The translations under genes were made by a program, and so were the position numbers. The notes under the pieces were generated by a model, which was given only the letters and a program-made list of their open reading frames with translations, did not search any database and was not told where the DNA came from. This document shows, in pieces, positions 1 to 30,613 of a DNA stretch of 64,000 bases (position 1 is its first letter; each line of letters opens with the position of its first letter). The stretch is from an uncultured Candidatus Saccharibacteria bacterium (lineage in GTDB: Bacteria > Patescibacteriota > Minisyncoccia > CAIUEV01 > JAHKAQ01): assembly GCA_964598205.1 (NCBI GenBank), contig CAZRBB010000001.1, positions 156,199-220,198 on the forward strand. Reading direction: 5' to 3'.

Positions 1-1433
1 TGAAACTTAGTAGCCAAAAGAGCTAATTCTTGTTTTATTAATGGGTTTTCTTTCAAAGAAATATAGCGAAAAAGCAGGACTAAAGAAGGAATAAGAATAA
101 TTGTTGCCACAAACAGAGACAGTGATCCTAGCTTTTTAGCACTTTTATGAATTAGAAAAATAGTACCAAGTGCTAGGAATGGAAGAACGGCAAACAAATA
201 TCGTCGCAGAATCCAAGGGTGGTCTAGAGAAATGTTTGGTTTTAAAAAATAAATTAAGAAAGGACCAAGAAAGAGCAAGAGTAGAAGCTCTATTTGGGAA
301 AGCTTTCTCCTAAAAATTCCGCCAAAAATGATAATCAAAATATAAACAATTCCCAAAATCAACAAAGGAAAGAGTTGGTAATTTAAAAAAACTTTTAGCA
401 CATAAAGAGTTTTGGGAAGCAAATATCCAAAAGGGGAAAAGCCCAAAAAGGAAGGATTAATAGGGGAATATCCCAAAACATCTTTAATCATTTTTTTATA
501 GAAGGGGAGAATACTAAGAGAGTAAGCAAGGAAGATTAAAAAGGAGCCAACAAGAAGTGCCTGAAATTTTTTAGATCGAAAGAGAGGGAAGCCAACTTTT
601 TTATCTTGGAAAAATAGATAAATCAAAAGAATTGCCATTAAGAAAACTCCTTCAATTCTTACAAGACAAAAAACCAAAAGAGAAAAAAAAGCACTAAAAA
701 GAAAACTAAAATTTTTCCCTTTGGTTTTTTGATAAAGAAATAGACTATAAATAAAAGTAAAAAGTAAACCAAAAGCGGTTGTTTCGGCTAGGTTTTGGCG
801 AGCATGCCAGAAGAAAGGAAATGTAAAAGCGATTAAAGGAAGGGAAGCAAGACCCCAAACAGAGCTTTTTGTTTGGGCTTTTGTTAAATAGAAAATTGCC
901 AAAAGACCAATAAAAATTCCTGGGATATTAGCAAATTTTAATCCCCAGTCTCCCAAAAAAGAAAACCAAAAAGCTAGGTAAGAAATATATCCTAAGTTAA
1001 ACTGGGTCTTTAATTGATTATCTTCGGTAATAATAAAACCAGGGAAGTTTAATGCCATGTGATTGGAGTTTTGGCTATTCAAGAACTCCAAGGCAGCCGG
1101 ACGAAAAGTGATTTTTTGGTTTTGAGAAAGCATTACGGCCGCTTCTACCATGGCACCAGGATCTCTTCCTCCTAGGTAGCTAATATTGAAATTCAAAAAA
1201 ACAATCAATGACCAAAAAGTAGCAAAAAGAAAAGCCAAAAGCTCCCAGCGGTCCAGGGTTTTTTCAAAAGAAAAAAGCTTGGTTTTTTTAGCCAAAAAAA
1301 GACAGACAATTAGAAGGGAAAGGCTGATTAACAGAGGATGGAAAAATTTTAAAAAAGCAAAAAACACGCAAAGAAAAACAGAAAGAGTAAAAACAAAAGA
1401 GAGCGCCAAAAAAAAGCGACCTGATTTTAACAT
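1..1433 (-). CDS. Polytopic membrane protein, 5' part only (gene continues off the left edge); possibly a GT-C/ArnT-PMT-like glycosyltransferase
   Basis: Minus-strand frame open from ATG at 1433-1431 down to position 1. Translation is F/L/I-rich with many predicted TM helices (e.g. ...ISYLAFWFSFLGDWGLKFANIPGIFIGLLAIFYL...). Not in the ORF track because no stop falls inside the window. Family assignment is weak. Confidence 0.5.
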   Translation of the reverse strand, partial: MLKSGRFFLALSFVFTLSVFLCVFFAFLKFFHPLLISLSLLIVCLFLAKKTKLFSFEKTLDRWELLAFLFATFWSLIVFLNFNISYLGGRDPGAMVEAAVMLSQNQKITFRPAALEFLNSQNSNHMALNFPGFIITEDNQLKTQFNLGYISYLAFWFSFLGDWGLKFANIPGIFIGLLAIFYLTKAQTKSSVWGLASLPLIAFTFPFFWHARQNLAETTAFGLLFTFIYSLFLYQKTKGKNFSFLFSAFFSLLVFCLVRIEGVFLMAILLIYLFFQDKKVGFPLFRSKKFQALLVGSFLIFLAYSLSILPFYKKMIKDVLGYSPINPSFLGFSPFGYLLPKTLYVLKVFLNYQLFPLLILGIVYILIIIFGGIFRRKLSQIELLLLLFLGPFLIYFLKPNISLDHPWILRRYLFAVLPFLALGTIFLIHKSAKKLGSLSLFVATIILIPSLVLLFRYISLKENPLIKQELALLATKF

Positions 1434-1451
1434 TCTTTTTTTTAAGACTTA

Positions 1452-2609
1452 CTACCCTAACCGTTTAACAATAAGAGGCTTAGCTAGGGCTCCTTCTAAG
1501 GAAGAGATCTTTTGGGTTAACTTTTTTAAATTGCCTTCGTCTATCTCTGCTGCCAAAATAATAAGAGTAGAGCATCTTTCCACACATTTTCTGGTAAGAG
1601 GAAGGCCAATGCGACCTAAAAAGAAACTTCCAAAGTCGGTTAAGATTTCGTTTACTTTGCCCGCGTTTTCGGTCCGATTAGAAAGAAAAATAGAAATTGT
1701 GGCTAAGTAGAGAGGTGGAGCGGAGGGGGCTTCGCCCTTTGCCTTATTAACGGTTGGAGGAGTTTTTTTCGGTTCTTTTTTTTTCTGCTCAGACCCTGTC
1801 TTGCTATTAGTATTTGAAAATTTTTGACCTTGGTTCAAGCGATCAGCATTGACACTATTATTCTGAACACTACTCGACTTATTAATAGGCTTGCTTTTTA
1901 GATCAACTTTCACTGCCTCAACATCTTTATTGGGCTTATTTTCCAGATTACTTTCCTTGACTGGTTCTTTGGTGGGTTCTTTACTAGGAACAACTTCTTT
2001 TCCTTTTGTTGTGATTTCTTCTTGGGAAAAAACAAAATCTATTCTTTTTTCTGGATAAACTGTTGGCGGCATCTGAGTTTCTTGCCCTTGATTATTCTCT
2101 ATTACTTCCTTTTGGATTTGGTCTTGTTGTGGGTTAAAATTTTGATTTTCTAAGAGTGGTTTTTTTAGTTTTGGTTGCTCTGAGTTTTGTCTAGAAGAGT
2201 GGGAATCAATTTGTTCTGAAAAATTAAAAGGGCTGGGGCTTTCTTGTTCGGAAACAATTGGTCCCGAATTACCAGTTTCCAAACTACTACTTAAGCTTTC
2301 CAGGTTTCCACCGCCACTCGGTTTATAAGCTGTTGGAGAAGTTATAGGGGGAACGCTAGGGGGAGTAGTTGGAGGGGAAAACGATAGAAAGGGAGAAGGA
2401 GCAGGAGCAGGAATGGGAGAAGGAGCAGGAGCAGGAATGGGAGCAGGAGAAGGAGAAGGAGCAGGAGTAGGAGCGGGATTAGGAGTGTTAAAGCTGGGAG
2501 TGGCGGTTGGTTGAGAAATGGGAGAAGAATTAACTTCCGAATCCGAAGAAGGAATTCCAGACAAAAAAGAAAGCACATCATCATCTCTCCGATTGTTTAG
2601 GGGTGACAT
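1452..2609 (-). CDS. TM1266-like ACT-domain protein (putative iron-only hydrogenase system regulator) with a long Pro/Ser/Ala-rich low-complexity N-terminal region
   Basis: C-terminal ~85 aa (LYLATISIFLSNRTENAGKVNEILTDFG...RIGLP...LIILAAEIDEGNLKKLTQKISSLEGA...PLIV) matches the TM1266/TIGR03959-type ACT fold as I recall it. N-terminal 300 aa is P/S/A/Q/N-rich, including tandem PAPAPSPIPAP repeats. ATG at 2609. Divergently oriented to the hydrogenase operon. Confidence 0.5.
   Translation of the reverse strand: MSPLNNRRDDDVLSFLSGIPSSDSEVNSSPISQPTATPSFNTPNPAPTPAPSPSPAPIPAPAPSPIPAPAPSPFLSFSPPTTPPSVPPITSPTAYKPSGGGNLESLSSSLETGNSGPIVSEQESPSPFNFSEQIDSHSSRQNSEQPKLKKPLLENQNFNPQQDQIQKEVIENNQGQETQMPPTVYPEKRIDFVFSQEEITTKGKEVVPSKEPTKEPVKESNLENKPNKDVEAVKVDLKSKPINKSSSVQNNSVNADRLNQGQKFSNTNSKTGSEQKKKEPKKTPPTVNKAKGEAPSAPPLYLATISIFLSNRTENAGKVNEILTDFGSFFLGRIGLPLTRKCVERCSTLIILAAEIDEGNLKKLTQKISSLEGALAKPLIVKRLG
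2389..2500. repeat. Tandem short GC-rich repeats (ggagcaggagcaggaatggga...) encoding a (P-A-P-S/I)n low-complexity tract inside the 1452..2609 CDS
   Basis: Visible direct repeats of ~30 nt units. The alternate frame gives a poly-Leu artefact ORF (2342..2584). Confidence 0.7.
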
Positions 2610-26165: not shown

Positions 26166-26231
26166 CTTGAGTTTAATGGGAAAGGGGGTGACTGTCAATA
26201 AAGCTAGGAATTTTTTAATAAAAATTGAAAA

Positions 26232-26289
26232 ATAACCCAATAACTATTTTAAACAGAATTGAGTTGCTTCTGTTTAAAATAGTTATTGG
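26232..26289. repeat. 23-bp perfect inverted repeat (hairpin/operator-like) just 3' of the ArsP-like gene
   Basis: cccaataactattttaaacagaa - ttgagttgc - ttctgtttaaaatagttattggg. Confidence 0.7.
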
Positions 26290-26318
26290 GTTATTTCCTC
26301 TTCTACATAAAAATGCTC

Positions 26319-27287
26319 TTACAAAATCCAATTAAACAAATATCCCGTAAAAATTATGCCGATTCCCACAACGCCAGCAAAAATAAAGATCAATTTGATT
26401 TTCATCACCTTTTTTAAAATCATAAACTCCGGCAAAGACAATGCCGTTACGGCCATCATAAACGCCAGTGTTGTTCCTAGGGCAACGCCTTTTTCCACCA
26501 AGGCACTAACCAGTGGAATAATTCCAGCCACATTAGAATAAAGCGGAATGCCGATTAAAACTGCTAGTGGCACGGCATACCATTTATCTGCTCCGGCGTA
26601 CTTTGCCAAAAAATCAGTCGGCACATAACCATGAATCCAAGCACCTAAGCCAACCCCGATAATAATATATGGCCAAACTTTTTTAATAATATCGATAGTA
26701 TAACTTTTTGCGTAACTAATTCTTTGCTCCCATGTCATTTCCGGTAATTTCAGTTGGTCATTGAATTTTATTTTGTACACAAATTCTTCTACCAAGCTTT
26801 CTACCCTAAGATGCCCAATCACAATTCCCGAAAGAATAGCAATCACTAGTCCGCTTGTAATGTAGAGTAGGGCAATCTTCCAGCCGAATAATCCAAAAAG
26901 CAAAACCAACGCCACCTCGTTGATCATTGGTGAAGCGATTAGAAAGGAAAAGGTTGTTCCCAATGGCACGCCGGCTTCTAAGAAACCTAAAAACAGTGGA
27001 ATTGCCGAGCAGGTGCAAAATGGAGTGATTATCCCTAAGAGTGCCGCTAGGATATTACCAAAATATTTCTTGTCTTTGGCTAAAATTTTTCTAATTCTTT
27101 CTGGCGGAAGGAATGATCTAATAATCGAAACTGTAAAAATAATAACAATGAGCAAAAGAAAAATCTTGATCGTATCGAAGATAAAAAAATTGACAGCACC
27201 AGCCAGGAGCGTTCCAGGAGCAATATTAAAAATGGAGTAAGTTAGCCAGTCGGCAAATAATTGAACAGGATAAAATATATTAGTCAT
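26319..27287 (-). CDS. arsP: UPF0718/PF03773-family permease, ArsP-like (organoarsenical efflux permease family)
   Basis: Polytopic membrane protein with the ITPFCTCSAIPLF motif (TPFcSCS-type Cys pair characteristic of ArsP-like permeases). Confidence 0.7.
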   Translation of the reverse strand: MTNIFYPVQLFADWLTYSIFNIAPGTLLAGAVNFFIFDTIKIFLLLIVIIFTVSIIRSFLPPERIRKILAKDKKYFGNILAALLGIITPFCTCSAIPLFLGFLEAGVPLGTTFSFLIASPMINEVALVLLFGLFGWKIALLYITSGLVIAILSGIVIGHLRVESLVEEFVYKIKFNDQLKLPEMTWEQRISYAKSYTIDIIKKVWPYIIIGVGLGAWIHGYVPTDFLAKYAGADKWYAVPLAVLIGIPLYSNVAGIIPLVSALVEKGVALGTTLAFMMAVTALSLPEFMILKKVMKIKLIFIFAGVVGIGIIFTGYLFNWIL

Positions 27288-27386
27288 AAGTTTTAATCAA
27301 AAACAAACAATAACAACATTAATGCCGATTGACCAAATGAGATTTTTAAAAGCGGTAGGATGATTATGATTTTGTTCAGGCATATT

Positions 27387-27839
27387 TTATAAATTGATCA
27401 AATATTTTACCAAAAATTGTAAATAATAGATCCCGGCCAAAAGAAAAACCGTGGCTACACCATAACGCATTACTTTTTCAATCTTCATCATTGCATTATA
27501 CATTTTGCTGATTTTCCCAACGCTAAAAGCCAAAATAAAAGAAAAAAAGATTACCGGCAAACCGGTTCCTAAAATTTTGATGTTCATTTTATTTATTTTA
27601 AAAAGTTTTTTGTATTTTTTGACTGCTTCTTTATTTAAGCGATAGCGAATGAAATTACCTTCGCGTTTTTCGCTTAACAATCCTATATTCTTTAATTGCT
27701 TAAGATGATGAGATGCTAATTTATTAGAAATTCCTATTTCATGAACGATTTCGCAAACGCATTTAGCGCCACAGTCAAGGGCACAAATTATCCCTAAGCG
27801 ATTCGGATCCGCTACCGCCCTGAGAAATTTGTATACTTC
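27387..27839 (-). CDS. arsR: ArsR/SmtB-family wHTH regulator fused to a C-terminal 2-TM segment; no canonical start codon in frame (possible frameshift or non-canonical initiation)
   Basis: Frame open from the stop at 27842-27840 gives EVYKFLRAVADPNRLGIICALDCGAKCVCEIVHEIGISNKLASHHLKQLKNIGLLSEKREGNFIRYRL (CVC metal site, SHHLK recognition helix), then TM helices. The only in-frame start is the TTG at 27680 used by the ORF track. An ATG at 27846-27844 is in a different frame. Confidence 0.55.
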   Translation of the reverse strand, partial: EVYKFLRAVADPNRLGIICALDCGAKCVCEIVHEIGISNKLASHHLKQLKNIGLLSEKREGNFIRYRLNKEAVKKYKKLFKINKMNIKILGTGLPVIFFSFILAFSVGKISKMYNAMMKIEKVMRYGVATVFLLAGIYYLQFLVKYLINL

Positions 27840-27847
27840 TTATCATG

Positions 27848-30613
27848 TCAACGACTTAATTTTTTTCTTGCCTCTTCAAACAAGAACACTCCCAAGAAGG
27901 AAACCCCTACCATCAACCAGTCCCAGCTATCGATTGGTGACATTCGCAAATATTTTTGGAAAAAAGGAGCGTACATAAAAATCAATAGAATTCCCAAGGA
28001 AATAAAGGCCGAGCCAATAGTGTATTTATTTTTGAAAAATCCCAAGGCAAAAGGGGAGAGAGTTTCGCTTCGGGATTGAAACAAATTGGCCATTTGCGAC
28101 ATTGCTAGAACGGCATAAGTGGCGGTAGTGGATTTAATATAGAGCGCGGAATCGCTGGACATTAATTCTCCAAATTGCCACCCACCCCTAATCATTGACC
28201 ACAAAAAAGTGATTGTTCCGGCCATGGCCACTACAATTCCAATCATTATAATTCTCTTAAAACAGGCAAAATCAATTATTTCTTTTTGTTGATTGCTTCT
28301 GTTTCTACTTTTGGAATTTATTTCTGGTGGCTCAAGTCCTAATGAAAAAGAAGGAAAAACATCGGTTGCTAAATCAATAGAGAGGATTTGAATCGCTGTA
28401 ATGGGAAAGGGAATGTGAAGTAGAACACCAAAAACAGTGGTAAACAGTTCGCTGGAATTAGAAGAAAAGACATAGTAAACAAACTTTTTTAAATTGGTAA
28501 AAAGAGTTCGTCCTTCTCTAATTCCATTAACAATCGAAGCAAAGTTATCGTCTAAGAGAATCATGTCGGCAGCTTCTTTGGAAACATCTGTTCCCATAAT
28601 TCCCATAGCTATCCCAATATCTGCCTTCTTTAGGGCTGGAGCATCGTTCACACCATCTCCAGTCATGGCGATTGTTTGTTTATTTTTAATCAAAACAGAA
28701 GCAATCCTTAATTTTTGAAGTGGACTAATCCTGGCAAAAACACAAGTCCCTTTTTTTATTCTTTGGTAAAGCTCCTGATCTCCTAGGATTTCTAATTCTT
28801 TACCGCTAATCACTTGATTCTTTTGGGAATTTTGTGGCAATAAACCGATTTTTTTGGCGATTGCCTTGGCTGTAATTTCATAATCGCCGGTAATCATTAT
28901 TGTTTTAATACCTAACTCATGGCATTCGCTAAGGGCTACTGTTACTTCCTTTCTGGGAGGATCGGTCATGGCCATCATTCCTACCCATACTAAATCTTTT
29001 TCTGCTTCCTTTTTTATAAAACCTGTATTTTTTAGTTTTTCTTCTTTTATTTTACTTAAATCACGATAAGCCAAGGCTAATACGCGCAATGCTTCTTGAG
29101 ATAATCGATTGTATTGTTCTTTGATTTTTTCTTTTTCTTTCTGGGAAAATGAAATTAGCCGATCACCGATTTTTATTTGATTGCAAAGATCTATTAATAC
29201 ATCTGGAGAACCTTTTACGAAAGAAATTACTCGGCTATTTTGATAAATTACGCTCATCCGCATTCGGTCGGAAGAAAAAGGATTTTCGCCGATTTTCTTT
29301 TCTCCTTTTTCAAAAAAACCTTCTTCGCTATTGAATTTTTTTCCGGCTACAATCATGGCACCTTCTGTTGGATCGCCGATTATTTTATACCCTTTTTCTT
29401 CTTGGATTAAACTGGCATCATTGCACAGCGTTCCGATTCTAAAAAGTTCTTCTAGATTTTCTACTTCCAAAGGATCAACCCGCTGTCCTTCTAAGAAAAA
29501 TTCACCATTCGGTTCATAGCCATTACCAGTTAAATCAAGTTCTTGGTTAGGTAGGATTACCTTTGTAACGGTTAGTTCGTTTTTGGTGATGGTTCCAGTT
29601 TTGTCCGTGCAGATTATAGATACTGATCCCAAGGTTTCTACGGCACTGAGTTTTTTAGCTAAAACATTCTTTTTTAAAAGCTTTTTCATTCCTACGGATA
29701 GGGCTACAGAAATAGCCGCCGGCAGACCCTCTGGAACCACGGAAACAGCCAACGCTAAAGCAAAAAGAAAACTTTCGTAAGCGTTAATCTTAAAAAAATA
29801 ACCGACCATCATTACTACTACTCCAATAATTAAAGAAATCACGGTAATTTTTTTGCCCAGAATTTTCATTTTTCGCTGAAGAGGGGTGGGATTTTCTTGG
29901 ATCAGTTGAGCCATGGTGGCAATTCTTCCCAGTTCCGTTTCCATTCCAGTGGCTGTTACTACAAATTTTCCTTCCCCATTAGTCACTGATTCTCCAAGAA
30001 AAACCATGTTGGAAATATCGGACAAAATAACTTTTTCTTTTTTCATTGCTCCGGTTCTTCTAAACTCATCTTTTGATTCCCCCGAAAAAACAAACCCGTT
30101 AATTTTTAATTCGTAAGCTTCAAAAAGATAACCATCGGCTGGGACAGCATTGCCTGCCGATAAAAAAATAACATCTCCTAAAACCACTTCTGTTACTTTG
30201 ATTTCTTTTTTTTGGCCATTTCGAATAACCAATGTTTTGTCTGTAATTAAATTTTTTAATTTGTTTATGATTTGCTCCGCTTTGAATTCTTGAAAAAACC
30301 CCACCAAGGAATTAATTAAAACAATTATTAAAATAATTACTACATCACGAATCTCTCCAAAGAAAAAAGCCAATCCGGCTGCAACCAGTAGGATCCAAAT
30401 CAGAGCATCTTTAAATTGATCACCAAATATTCTTAATTTTTGCCAGCCAACCCGTTCCTTTATTTTATTTTCTCCGTATAATCGCAGTCTTTCTTCCGCT
30501 TCTTTATCTAGAAGACCTTTTTCATTGGAACTAAAAAATTCCAAAACTTCTTGGGGAGTGGCATTGTAAATTTCGCTACTAAATTCTTTTCCCATGGAGG
30601 ATTGATCTGCCAT
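27848..30613 (-). CDS. Cation-transporting P-type ATPase (P2-type, Ca2+/Mg2+-like)
   Basis: ICTDKTGTIT (phosphorylation site), TGD, MITGDYEITAKAIA and AMTGDGVNDAPALKKADIGIAMG motifs. ~10 TM helices, 921 aa. Confidence 0.9.
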   Translation of the reverse strand: MADQSSMGKEFSSEIYNATPQEVLEFFSSNEKGLLDKEAEERLRLYGENKIKERVGWQKLRIFGDQFKDALIWILLVAAGLAFFFGEIRDVVIILIIVLINSLVGFFQEFKAEQIINKLKNLITDKTLVIRNGQKKEIKVTEVVLGDVIFLSAGNAVPADGYLFEAYELKINGFVFSGESKDEFRRTGAMKKEKVILSDISNMVFLGESVTNGEGKFVVTATGMETELGRIATMAQLIQENPTPLQRKMKILGKKITVISLIIGVVVMMVGYFFKINAYESFLFALALAVSVVPEGLPAAISVALSVGMKKLLKKNVLAKKLSAVETLGSVSIICTDKTGTITKNELTVTKVILPNQELDLTGNGYEPNGEFFLEGQRVDPLEVENLEELFRIGTLCNDASLIQEEKGYKIIGDPTEGAMIVAGKKFNSEEGFFEKGEKKIGENPFSSDRMRMSVIYQNSRVISFVKGSPDVLIDLCNQIKIGDRLISFSQKEKEKIKEQYNRLSQEALRVLALAYRDLSKIKEEKLKNTGFIKKEAEKDLVWVGMMAMTDPPRKEVTVALSECHELGIKTIMITGDYEITAKAIAKKIGLLPQNSQKNQVISGKELEILGDQELYQRIKKGTCVFARISPLQKLRIASVLIKNKQTIAMTGDGVNDAPALKKADIGIAMGIMGTDVSKEAADMILLDDNFASIVNGIREGRTLFTNLKKFVYYVFSSNSSELFTTVFGVLLHIPFPITAIQILSIDLATDVFPSFSLGLEPPEINSKSRNRSNQQKEIIDFACFKRIIMIGIVVAMAGTITFLWSMIRGGWQFGELMSSDSALYIKSTTATYAVLAMSQMANLFQSRSETLSPFALGFFKNKYTIGSAFISLGILLIFMYAPFFQKYLRMSPIDSWDWLMVGVSFLGVFLFEEARKKLSR

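Follow-up and report, generated by a model that had tools for sequence, protein, structure and literature searches.

An apparent membrane-anchored ArsR in a Candidatus Saccharibacteria genome as a probable deletion relic of an arsR-arsEFG-CDF-permease operon

The names ArsE, ArsF, and ArsG come from a system of Shewanella putrefaciens for the detoxification of roxarsone and nitarsone (Chen, Zhang and Rosen 2019, as cited in PMC9144182). The permease ArsP of Campylobacter jejuni is an efflux protein for MAs(III) and trivalent roxarsone (Chen et al. 2015, as reviewed in PMC6205960). Here we describe a locus of an uncultured Candidatus Saccharibacteria bacterium, in which pieces of genes of this kind lie between a P-type ATPase gene and an ArsP-like permease gene. 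The window, i.e. the whole stretch of 64,000 nucleotides (nt) that was analyzed, covers positions 156,199 to 220,198 of contig CAZRBB010000001.1 (assembly GCA_964598205.1); coordinates are those of the window, and all features located by them are on its minus strand. A preliminary description of this DNA had reported an ArsR-like regulator fused to a membrane anchor and lacking a canonical start codon. We hold it to be very probable that the locus is instead a deletion relic of an arsR-arsE-arsF-arsG-CDF-permease operon, of which only the terminal permease is intact.

Operons of this composition, which appear to be a metal- or metalloid-resistance type common in Patescibacteria, provided the comparison. 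A comparison anchored on the permease yielded 492 confirmed related stretches from species-representative genomes, of which 80 were kept (loci numbered L001 onward, with metagenome loci added up to L152). Most of the 80 kept loci are labeled Patescibacteria or candidate phyla radiation (CPR), and their permeases are 71-86% identical to that of the window. In the closest relatives (L001, L014, L020, and L095), the genes upstream of the permease are separate, i.e. arsR (102-104 amino acids, aa), arsE (a 77-aa thioredoxin-like protein with the N-terminus MNIKILGTGCPNC), arsF (158-170 aa), arsG (a 239-aa DsbD_2-type membrane protein with the C-terminal end ...GTGLPV(I/V)(I/V)FSFILAFS.GK...YYLQFLVKYLINLI), and with or without a CDF gene. 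A CDF transporter gene of ~310 aa stands between arsG and the permease in L014, L020, and L095; the L014 protein was classed as ZitB-like.

The proteins of these relatives pass the NCBIfam cut-offs for the Shewanella families, as seen for L001 with ArsE (114 bits, cut-off 62), ArsF (108.6 bits, cut-off 60), and ArsG (281.6 bits, cut-off 200). Two differences from the Shewanella system have to be kept in mind: the link of the Patescibacteria genes to arsenical metabolism is drawn from family models alone, with a CDF zinc-type exporter often alongside, and the window has none of arsE, arsF, and arsG in intact form, arsE codons 1-9 and the last 57 arsG codons being retained. The operons of the relatives are modular and comprise arsR-permease, arsR-trx-permease, arsR-arsEFG-permease, and arsR-arsEFG-CDF-permease forms. 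Two-gene arsR-permease modules (L089, L092, L101, and L103) match the minimal resistance module that had been proposed for the window, but here the regulator half is dead. The ArsR proteins closest to that of the window (79% and 77% identical) are located in arsR-thioredoxin-permease operons.

Composition of the fused reading frame

The frame in question is closed upstream by a TAA at 27842-27840; it starts at 27839 and runs for 150 codons to a TAA at 27389-27387. Its first ~80 codons encode an ArsR winged helix-turn-helix (wHTH), and its last ~57 codons are hydrophobic and form two helices. Several of the features reported earlier were confirmed. An ArsR/SmtB wHTH is encoded upstream of the open reading frame (ORF) 27387..27680: the Pfam model HTH_5 matched residues 11-56 of the 150-aa translation (E = 8.6e-13), and the NCBIfam ArsR/SmtB model HTH_metalloreg (NF033788) matched its first 75 residues with 80 bits (cut-off 55). 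The frame does open right after the stop of the ATPase gene (TGA 27850-27848), and it contains no ATG, GTG, or TTG between 27839 and 27681. The first such codon, TTG 27680, is the start of the 97-aa ORF reported by gene callers (27680..27387). An 8-nt junction, C-ATG-ATA-A (27840..27847), separates the ATPase stop from the first codon with arsR homology; it holds the TAA closing the wHTH frame upstream as well as an ATG at 27846-27844. This ATG is out of frame, as had been stated, and its own frame reaches a stop after 23 codons. The ATPase, ATG, and wHTH frames are thus three different frames.

The 150-codon 'membrane-anchored ArsR' reads as an accidental in-frame concatenation of three gene fragments and not as a functional regulator. 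Across the fusion, the window translates as ...KKYKKLF-KINK-MNIKILGTG-LPVIFFSFILAFSVGK..., in which four segments can be told apart. The arsR remnant (27600..27839) corresponds to codons ~21-100 of a ~102-codon gene and shows 65-79% identity, over 80 residues, with stand-alone ArsR proteins of 102 aa. It is followed by a degenerate arsR 3' end, K-I-N-K (27588..27599), after which come the first nine codons of arsE (27561..27587; ATG AAC ATC AAA ATT TTA GGA ACC GGT, MNIKILGTG) and the 3' end of arsG (27387..27560), consisting of the last 57 codons and the stop. The relatives have an arsR stop codon and a spacer of 9-11 nt before arsE. Both are absent here, the window being 15-17 nt shorter at this point, and the arsR frame consequently continues into the arsE ATG.

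The hydrophobic tail, which is the source of the 'two transmembrane (TM) helices', had a single NCBIfam match, to positions 171-222 of the 225 positions of the ArsG-family transporter model NF040495 (E = 1.5e-14). The score of 53.9 bits lies far below the cut-off of 200, and the tail is no full-length ArsG of the kind found in L001. Since only the C-terminal end of the ArsG model was matched, the tail is a gene fragment and no anchor domain; it is 75-92% identical to the C-termini of the 239-aa ArsG-like proteins of the relatives. The earlier observation that the wHTH is continuous with C-terminal TM helices therefore stands as far as the open frame is concerned, but the helices appear to be the 3' end of a separate arsG-family gene and not an anchor of ArsR.

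At the codon level, the junction MNIKILGTG|LPVIFF falls on a shared GGNACNGGNT, beyond which TTG CCG GTA ATC... continues arsG from codon ~183. The sequence GGN ACN GGN T(G/T)N CC occurs in both parental genes at the breakpoints (27569-27555), which points to a deletion between direct repeats of ~10 nt. This deletion, of at least 1.26 kb, took out arsF completely, together with most of arsE and three quarters of arsG. The CPNC active site that follows the arsE start in the relatives was lost with it, so that the CxxC expected of MTH895/ArsE (TIGR00412) is missing. No further copies of arsE, arsF, arsG, or CDF genes were found in the 64-kb window.

At its 5' side, arsR homology begins at ~27839, i.e. 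at arsR codon ~21, and the ATPase stop occupies the place of the missing 5' features. All 13 close relatives examined (13/13) have an N-terminal segment M-x-F-x-C-C-(A/G)-... and ~10 more residues before the (K/Q/E)xYxFLR helix, and in all 13 the perfect palindrome ATTCTAATATAAATTAGAAT lies directly upstream of the arsR start codon. An extended form, (ACT)ATTCTAATATAAATTAGAAT(AGT), was seen at ~3180-3208 in L001, at ~2215-2242 in L020, and in 11 other loci. This palindrome looks like a typical ArsR/SmtB operator; together with the N-terminal M-E-F-K-C-C-A-K-N-S, it suggests the operator and the Cys-pair sensing site of a Patescibacteria ArsR subfamily.

In the window, neither element is present. 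The palindrome had no match in the 64 kb at up to three mismatches, and the segment M-x-F-K-C-C-A-K-N-S with its CC pair is absent from arsR. As for inducer-binding cysteines, the remnant retains a CVC motif where As(III)-sensing ArsR has one, in the alpha-3 position, and has lost the N-terminal CC pair of the close relatives. Compared with a stand-alone ArsR/SmtB protein (NF033788), the remnant shares the wHTH signature and the CVC motif, but it lacks a start codon, the CC segment, its own stop, and the operator, and it is fused to foreign fragments. It is no complete ORF of its own; the window arsR is a pseudogene and its regulator dead. Among the options offered in the preliminary description, 'pseudogene' was the correct one, in the form of deletions that left fragments of arsR, arsE, and arsG.

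Further downstream, 99 nt separate the stop of the tail from the ATG of the permease, and this 'spacer' contains the stump of a ZitB-like CDF gene (27297..27383), made up of 28 codons (MPEQNHNHPTAFKNLIWSIGINVVIVCF) and a stop. Over its 28 aa, the stump shows 68% identity to the N-terminal end of the L138 CDF protein (826..1725; MPEHTHSTASKNLVLSIGINTVIVVFEIIFG...) and is also similar to the CDF N-terminus of L095. In L014, L020, and L095 a CDF gene occupies the same position, and the stop and spacer that end the stump (TGATTAAAACTT-ATG) are similar to those of the L020 CDF gene. No Pfam model matched the stump, and the six TM segments and C-terminal dimerization domain of TIGR01297 are missing. 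A first comparison of the 99-nt spacer (DNA and protein alignment to the CDF genes of L020 and L014; blastn-short against the 80 loci) yielded chance-level similarity only, and the identity of the stump was established later, via the closer L138 CDF from the metagenome loci. The body of the CDF gene appears to have been removed by an internal deletion of ~0.85 kb.

At least four deletions, given here in the order we infer, would account for the locus. One would have taken the arsR start codon and the ~20 codons at the 5' end of the gene, along with the operator and presumably the promoter, leaving the stump 8 nt past the stop of an unrelated ATPase gene. Another would have removed the arsR stop codon and the arsR-arsE spacer. 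A third, of at least 1.26 kb between the G-T-G-encoding GGN ACN GGN T repeats, would have fused arsE, after its codon 9, in frame with arsG at codon ~183, and a fourth, of ~0.85 kb inside the CDF gene, would have left its 28 codons.

In having several independent deletions, one of them between short direct repeats, and in sparing the intact ATPase and permease genes on either side to within a few bases, the locus resembles deletional decay in other reduced bacterial genomes. We see no unusual difference from such cases; decay is well resolved here since many intact relatives are available. An operon of a known kind has undergone ordinary gene decay here, and no new type of regulator is involved. 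The main value of the finding lies in the correction: what a gene caller or reader would take for a hypothetical protein of 97 aa, or for an exotic ArsR with a membrane anchor, is a pseudogene chimera. The locus also gives a clean snapshot of a small Patescibacteria-type genome trimming an accessory operon, with deletions that end within a few bases of the genes kept: repressor and operator were removed, one deletion used ~10 nt of microhomology, and the terminal exporter was left behind a housekeeping-type ATPase gene.

Reproducibility, uniqueness, and alternative explanations

The lack of an in-frame start codon had been attributed, among other options, to a frameshift by sequencing error. 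An artifact of sequencing or assembly could take the form of a single-base indel near 27836-27847 or of a mis-join. The ATG at 27846, being one frame off the wHTH frame, does give the impression of an indel. The exact permease sequence was found on eight contigs, four of which were examined (three from the JGI samples 3300045131, 3300044987, and 3300044984, and one from a Logan/SRA assembly of SRR12261227). All four were 100% identical to the window wherever they overlapped it. Three of them, from different samples and assemblers, span all junctions and match the 651-nt region 27900-27250 exactly; the fourth, a short one, covers 27383-26198. A one-base repair would still leave 17-20 conserved N-terminal residues and the operator missing, and it could not restore the 1.26-kb and 0.85-kb deletions. 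The defect is thus no local frameshift but the loss of ~20 codons, the start codon, and the operator (presumably with the promoter). Separate assemblies are identical, and the lesions extend over kilobases, unlike a lone indel; for practical purposes this rules out an error of assembly or sequencing, and we give this explanation next to no credence.

A true membrane-tethered ArsR sensor that regulates the permease, translated by non-AUG initiation or by a programmed +1 frameshift from the ATG at 27846, would likewise explain an open frame of 150 codons in which wHTH and CVC are intact and the conserved positions unchanged. We consider it very improbable. The tail demonstrably derives from the end of a different gene. 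At the N-terminus ~20 residues are missing, among them the CC pair found in every close relative examined, and the family operator does not occur in the 64-kb window. The ATA-AGA-A at the junction is no known slippery or stimulated site. The relatives simply start at an in-frame ATG ~20 codons further upstream; they have nothing corresponding to the 8-nt junction, and no recoding signal is conserved. The earlier suggestion of programmed recoding or non-AUG initiation was abandoned on these grounds. Stop-codon read-through is excluded, since the ATPase, ATG, and wHTH frames all differ. The architecture also recurred in none of the homologs obtained. When the 150-aa translation was compared with 5.8 billion proteins, 669 matches were obtained, and the tail occurred only in the window's own 97-aa ORF (P0001); the other matches listed were stand-alone ArsR proteins of ~102 aa covering 45-55% of the query. 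The junction peptide FKINKMNI, used as a pattern in a metagenome scan, gave no second instance. The sequences compared thus indicate that there is no ArsR-TM fusion family. Metagenome matches spanning query residues 1-134 were considered as candidate fusions and rejected, as they represent adjacent arsR and arsE genes (e.g. L085).

Possibly, the relic ORFs were retained because they are useful, either by keeping ribosomes on an ATPase-to-permease transcript and so preventing polarity on the permease, or as a small two-helix membrane partner. Candidates would be the 28-aa CDF stump and the 66-aa ArsE'-'ArsG peptide starting at ATG 27587, or a longer version of the latter initiated at TTG 27680. 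The third and fourth deletions are both in frame, each preserving the native start codon and stop region, and the fragments have no substitution-level decay. However, recombination between two G-T-G-encoding repeats yields an in-frame joint automatically, recent deletions would not be expected to show decay, and only one lineage has the fusion. We regard a retained function as very unlikely.

Some observations do weigh against decay of the operon as the full explanation. The 150-codon frame has no internal stop, and the relic fragments are free of substitution-level decay: private changes at columns invariant among the relatives amounted to 1/31 in the arsR stump and 0/16 in the tail, i.e. there was no excess in the relics. 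The deletions would thus be recent relative to the sampled divergence, or some residual constraint may persist. This lack of decay is the chief argument for the improbable alternatives; the count itself gives no date for the deletions and no support for a function. Furthermore, no sister genome with the pre-deletion arrangement beside the ATPase gene was found, the closest ArsR being 79% identical, and a promoter-like site lies at 27413-27384, though such sites were no commoner than in shuffled sequence. Taken with the fragment identities and the breakpoints, we nevertheless favor the deletion relic with high confidence.

The surviving permease and its expression

The permease gene (26319..27287) is intact and encodes 322 aa. 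Its product matched the Pfam family PF03773 (ArsP_1) with 265.9 bits (cut-off 32.3) over profile positions 2-293 of 294, and it had four private changes at the 172 columns invariant among the relatives. The TPFCTCS motif that had been noted is present as ITPFCTCS, in a TM segment, with the Cys-x-Cys pair C91-T-C93 (C91 at 27017-27015 and C93 at 27011-27009). TPFC(S/T)CS was present in every relative permease whose sequence was read. The full-length PF03773 match and the Cys-x-Cys pair in T-P-F-C-T-C-S make the protein resemble C. jejuni ArsP; this likeness is one of Pfam family and motif, and the substrate could differ in being a metal.

The preliminary description had taken the CxC motif as a sign of an organoarsenical exporter. 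This motif is common to the metal-exporting SO_0444 (Cu/Zn) and SaoE branches (bioRxiv 10.1101/2022.07.06.499078), and it consequently does not establish organoarsenical specificity. The nearest curated equivalog models, those of the two branches, were both missed, with 135 bits for SaoE (cut-off 325) and 108 bits for SO_0444 Cu/Zn efflux (cut-off 300). A literature search for ArsP with Cys65/Cys67 returned nothing relevant. A metal rather than an organoarsenical could be the substrate, an option we leave open because a CDF zinc-type exporter is frequent in the same operons. The permease has probably kept its ability to export a thiol-reactive species, be it of a metal or a metalloid. As a general caution, organoarsenical resistance should not be deduced from the CxC motif alone.

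Upstream, the P-type ATPase gene (30613..27848), which now directly adjoins the arsR stump, is complete and encodes a 921-aa, Ca-ATPase-like protein of type IIA: Cation_ATPase_C was matched over positions 1-174 of 175, and the TIGR01116 match reaches position 799 of 799. The permease gene is on the same strand, ~560 nt downstream of the ATPase stop. No significant terminator was found in the stretch from ATPase to permease, where the sole terminator-like site is a hairpin at the arsE/arsG junction. The deletion at this junction created a small palindrome, ACCGGTTTGCCGGT, with a T-run at 27553-27566. It was flagged by the scan and rejected as a terminator, its folding energy being only -8 kcal/mol (z = -1.2).

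A promoter scan gave nine sigma-70-like sites where 15.1 +/- 3.3 were expected, i.e. no enrichment over shuffled sequence. Most likely, the permease would be expressed constitutively and without regulation by read-through from the ATPase gene, with termination at a hairpin at 26230-26296. Alternatively, the promoter-like site at 27413-27384 is a candidate for driving the permease. The hairpin starts 23 nt past the permease stop and is formed by an inverted repeat with perfect arms of 29 bp, a 9-nt loop, and a T-run thereafter. It has a folding energy of -41.4 kcal/mol (z = -13.1), its repeat is unique in the window, and it is probably the terminator of the unit. An inverted repeat of 29 bp is unusually long for a simple terminator. 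In L001 and L014, a gene for an HI0933-like oxidoreductase directly follows the permease instead of the hairpin.

Distribution and neighborhood of the related operons

An ATPase homolog near the permease was found in only three of the relatives (L055, L004, and L043), in none of them in the arrangement of the window. The one of L055 (7451-10159; Moraniibacteriota) is 59% identical and lies ~1.8 kb downstream of the permease, opposite to the order in the window. Its placement may hint at a rearrangement linking the ATPase and permease genes.

Permeases 71-86% identical to that of the window occur in bins of many CPR phyla and even in bins assigned to Bdellovibrionales, Gammaproteobacteria, Proteobacteria, and Woesearchaeota. 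Such a spread suggests horizontal transfer of the cassette, mis-binning, or both.

Some of the related operons contain extra ORFs. These encode a Cys-rich protein of 72 aa (L014, 2368-2586); a membrane protein of 402 aa (L095, 8719-9927); a protein of ~121 aa with two CxxCxxC motifs (L138, 446-814; L095, 8328-8693); and a membrane protein of 170 aa with CPICT (L095, 7084-7596; L138, 2119-2634).

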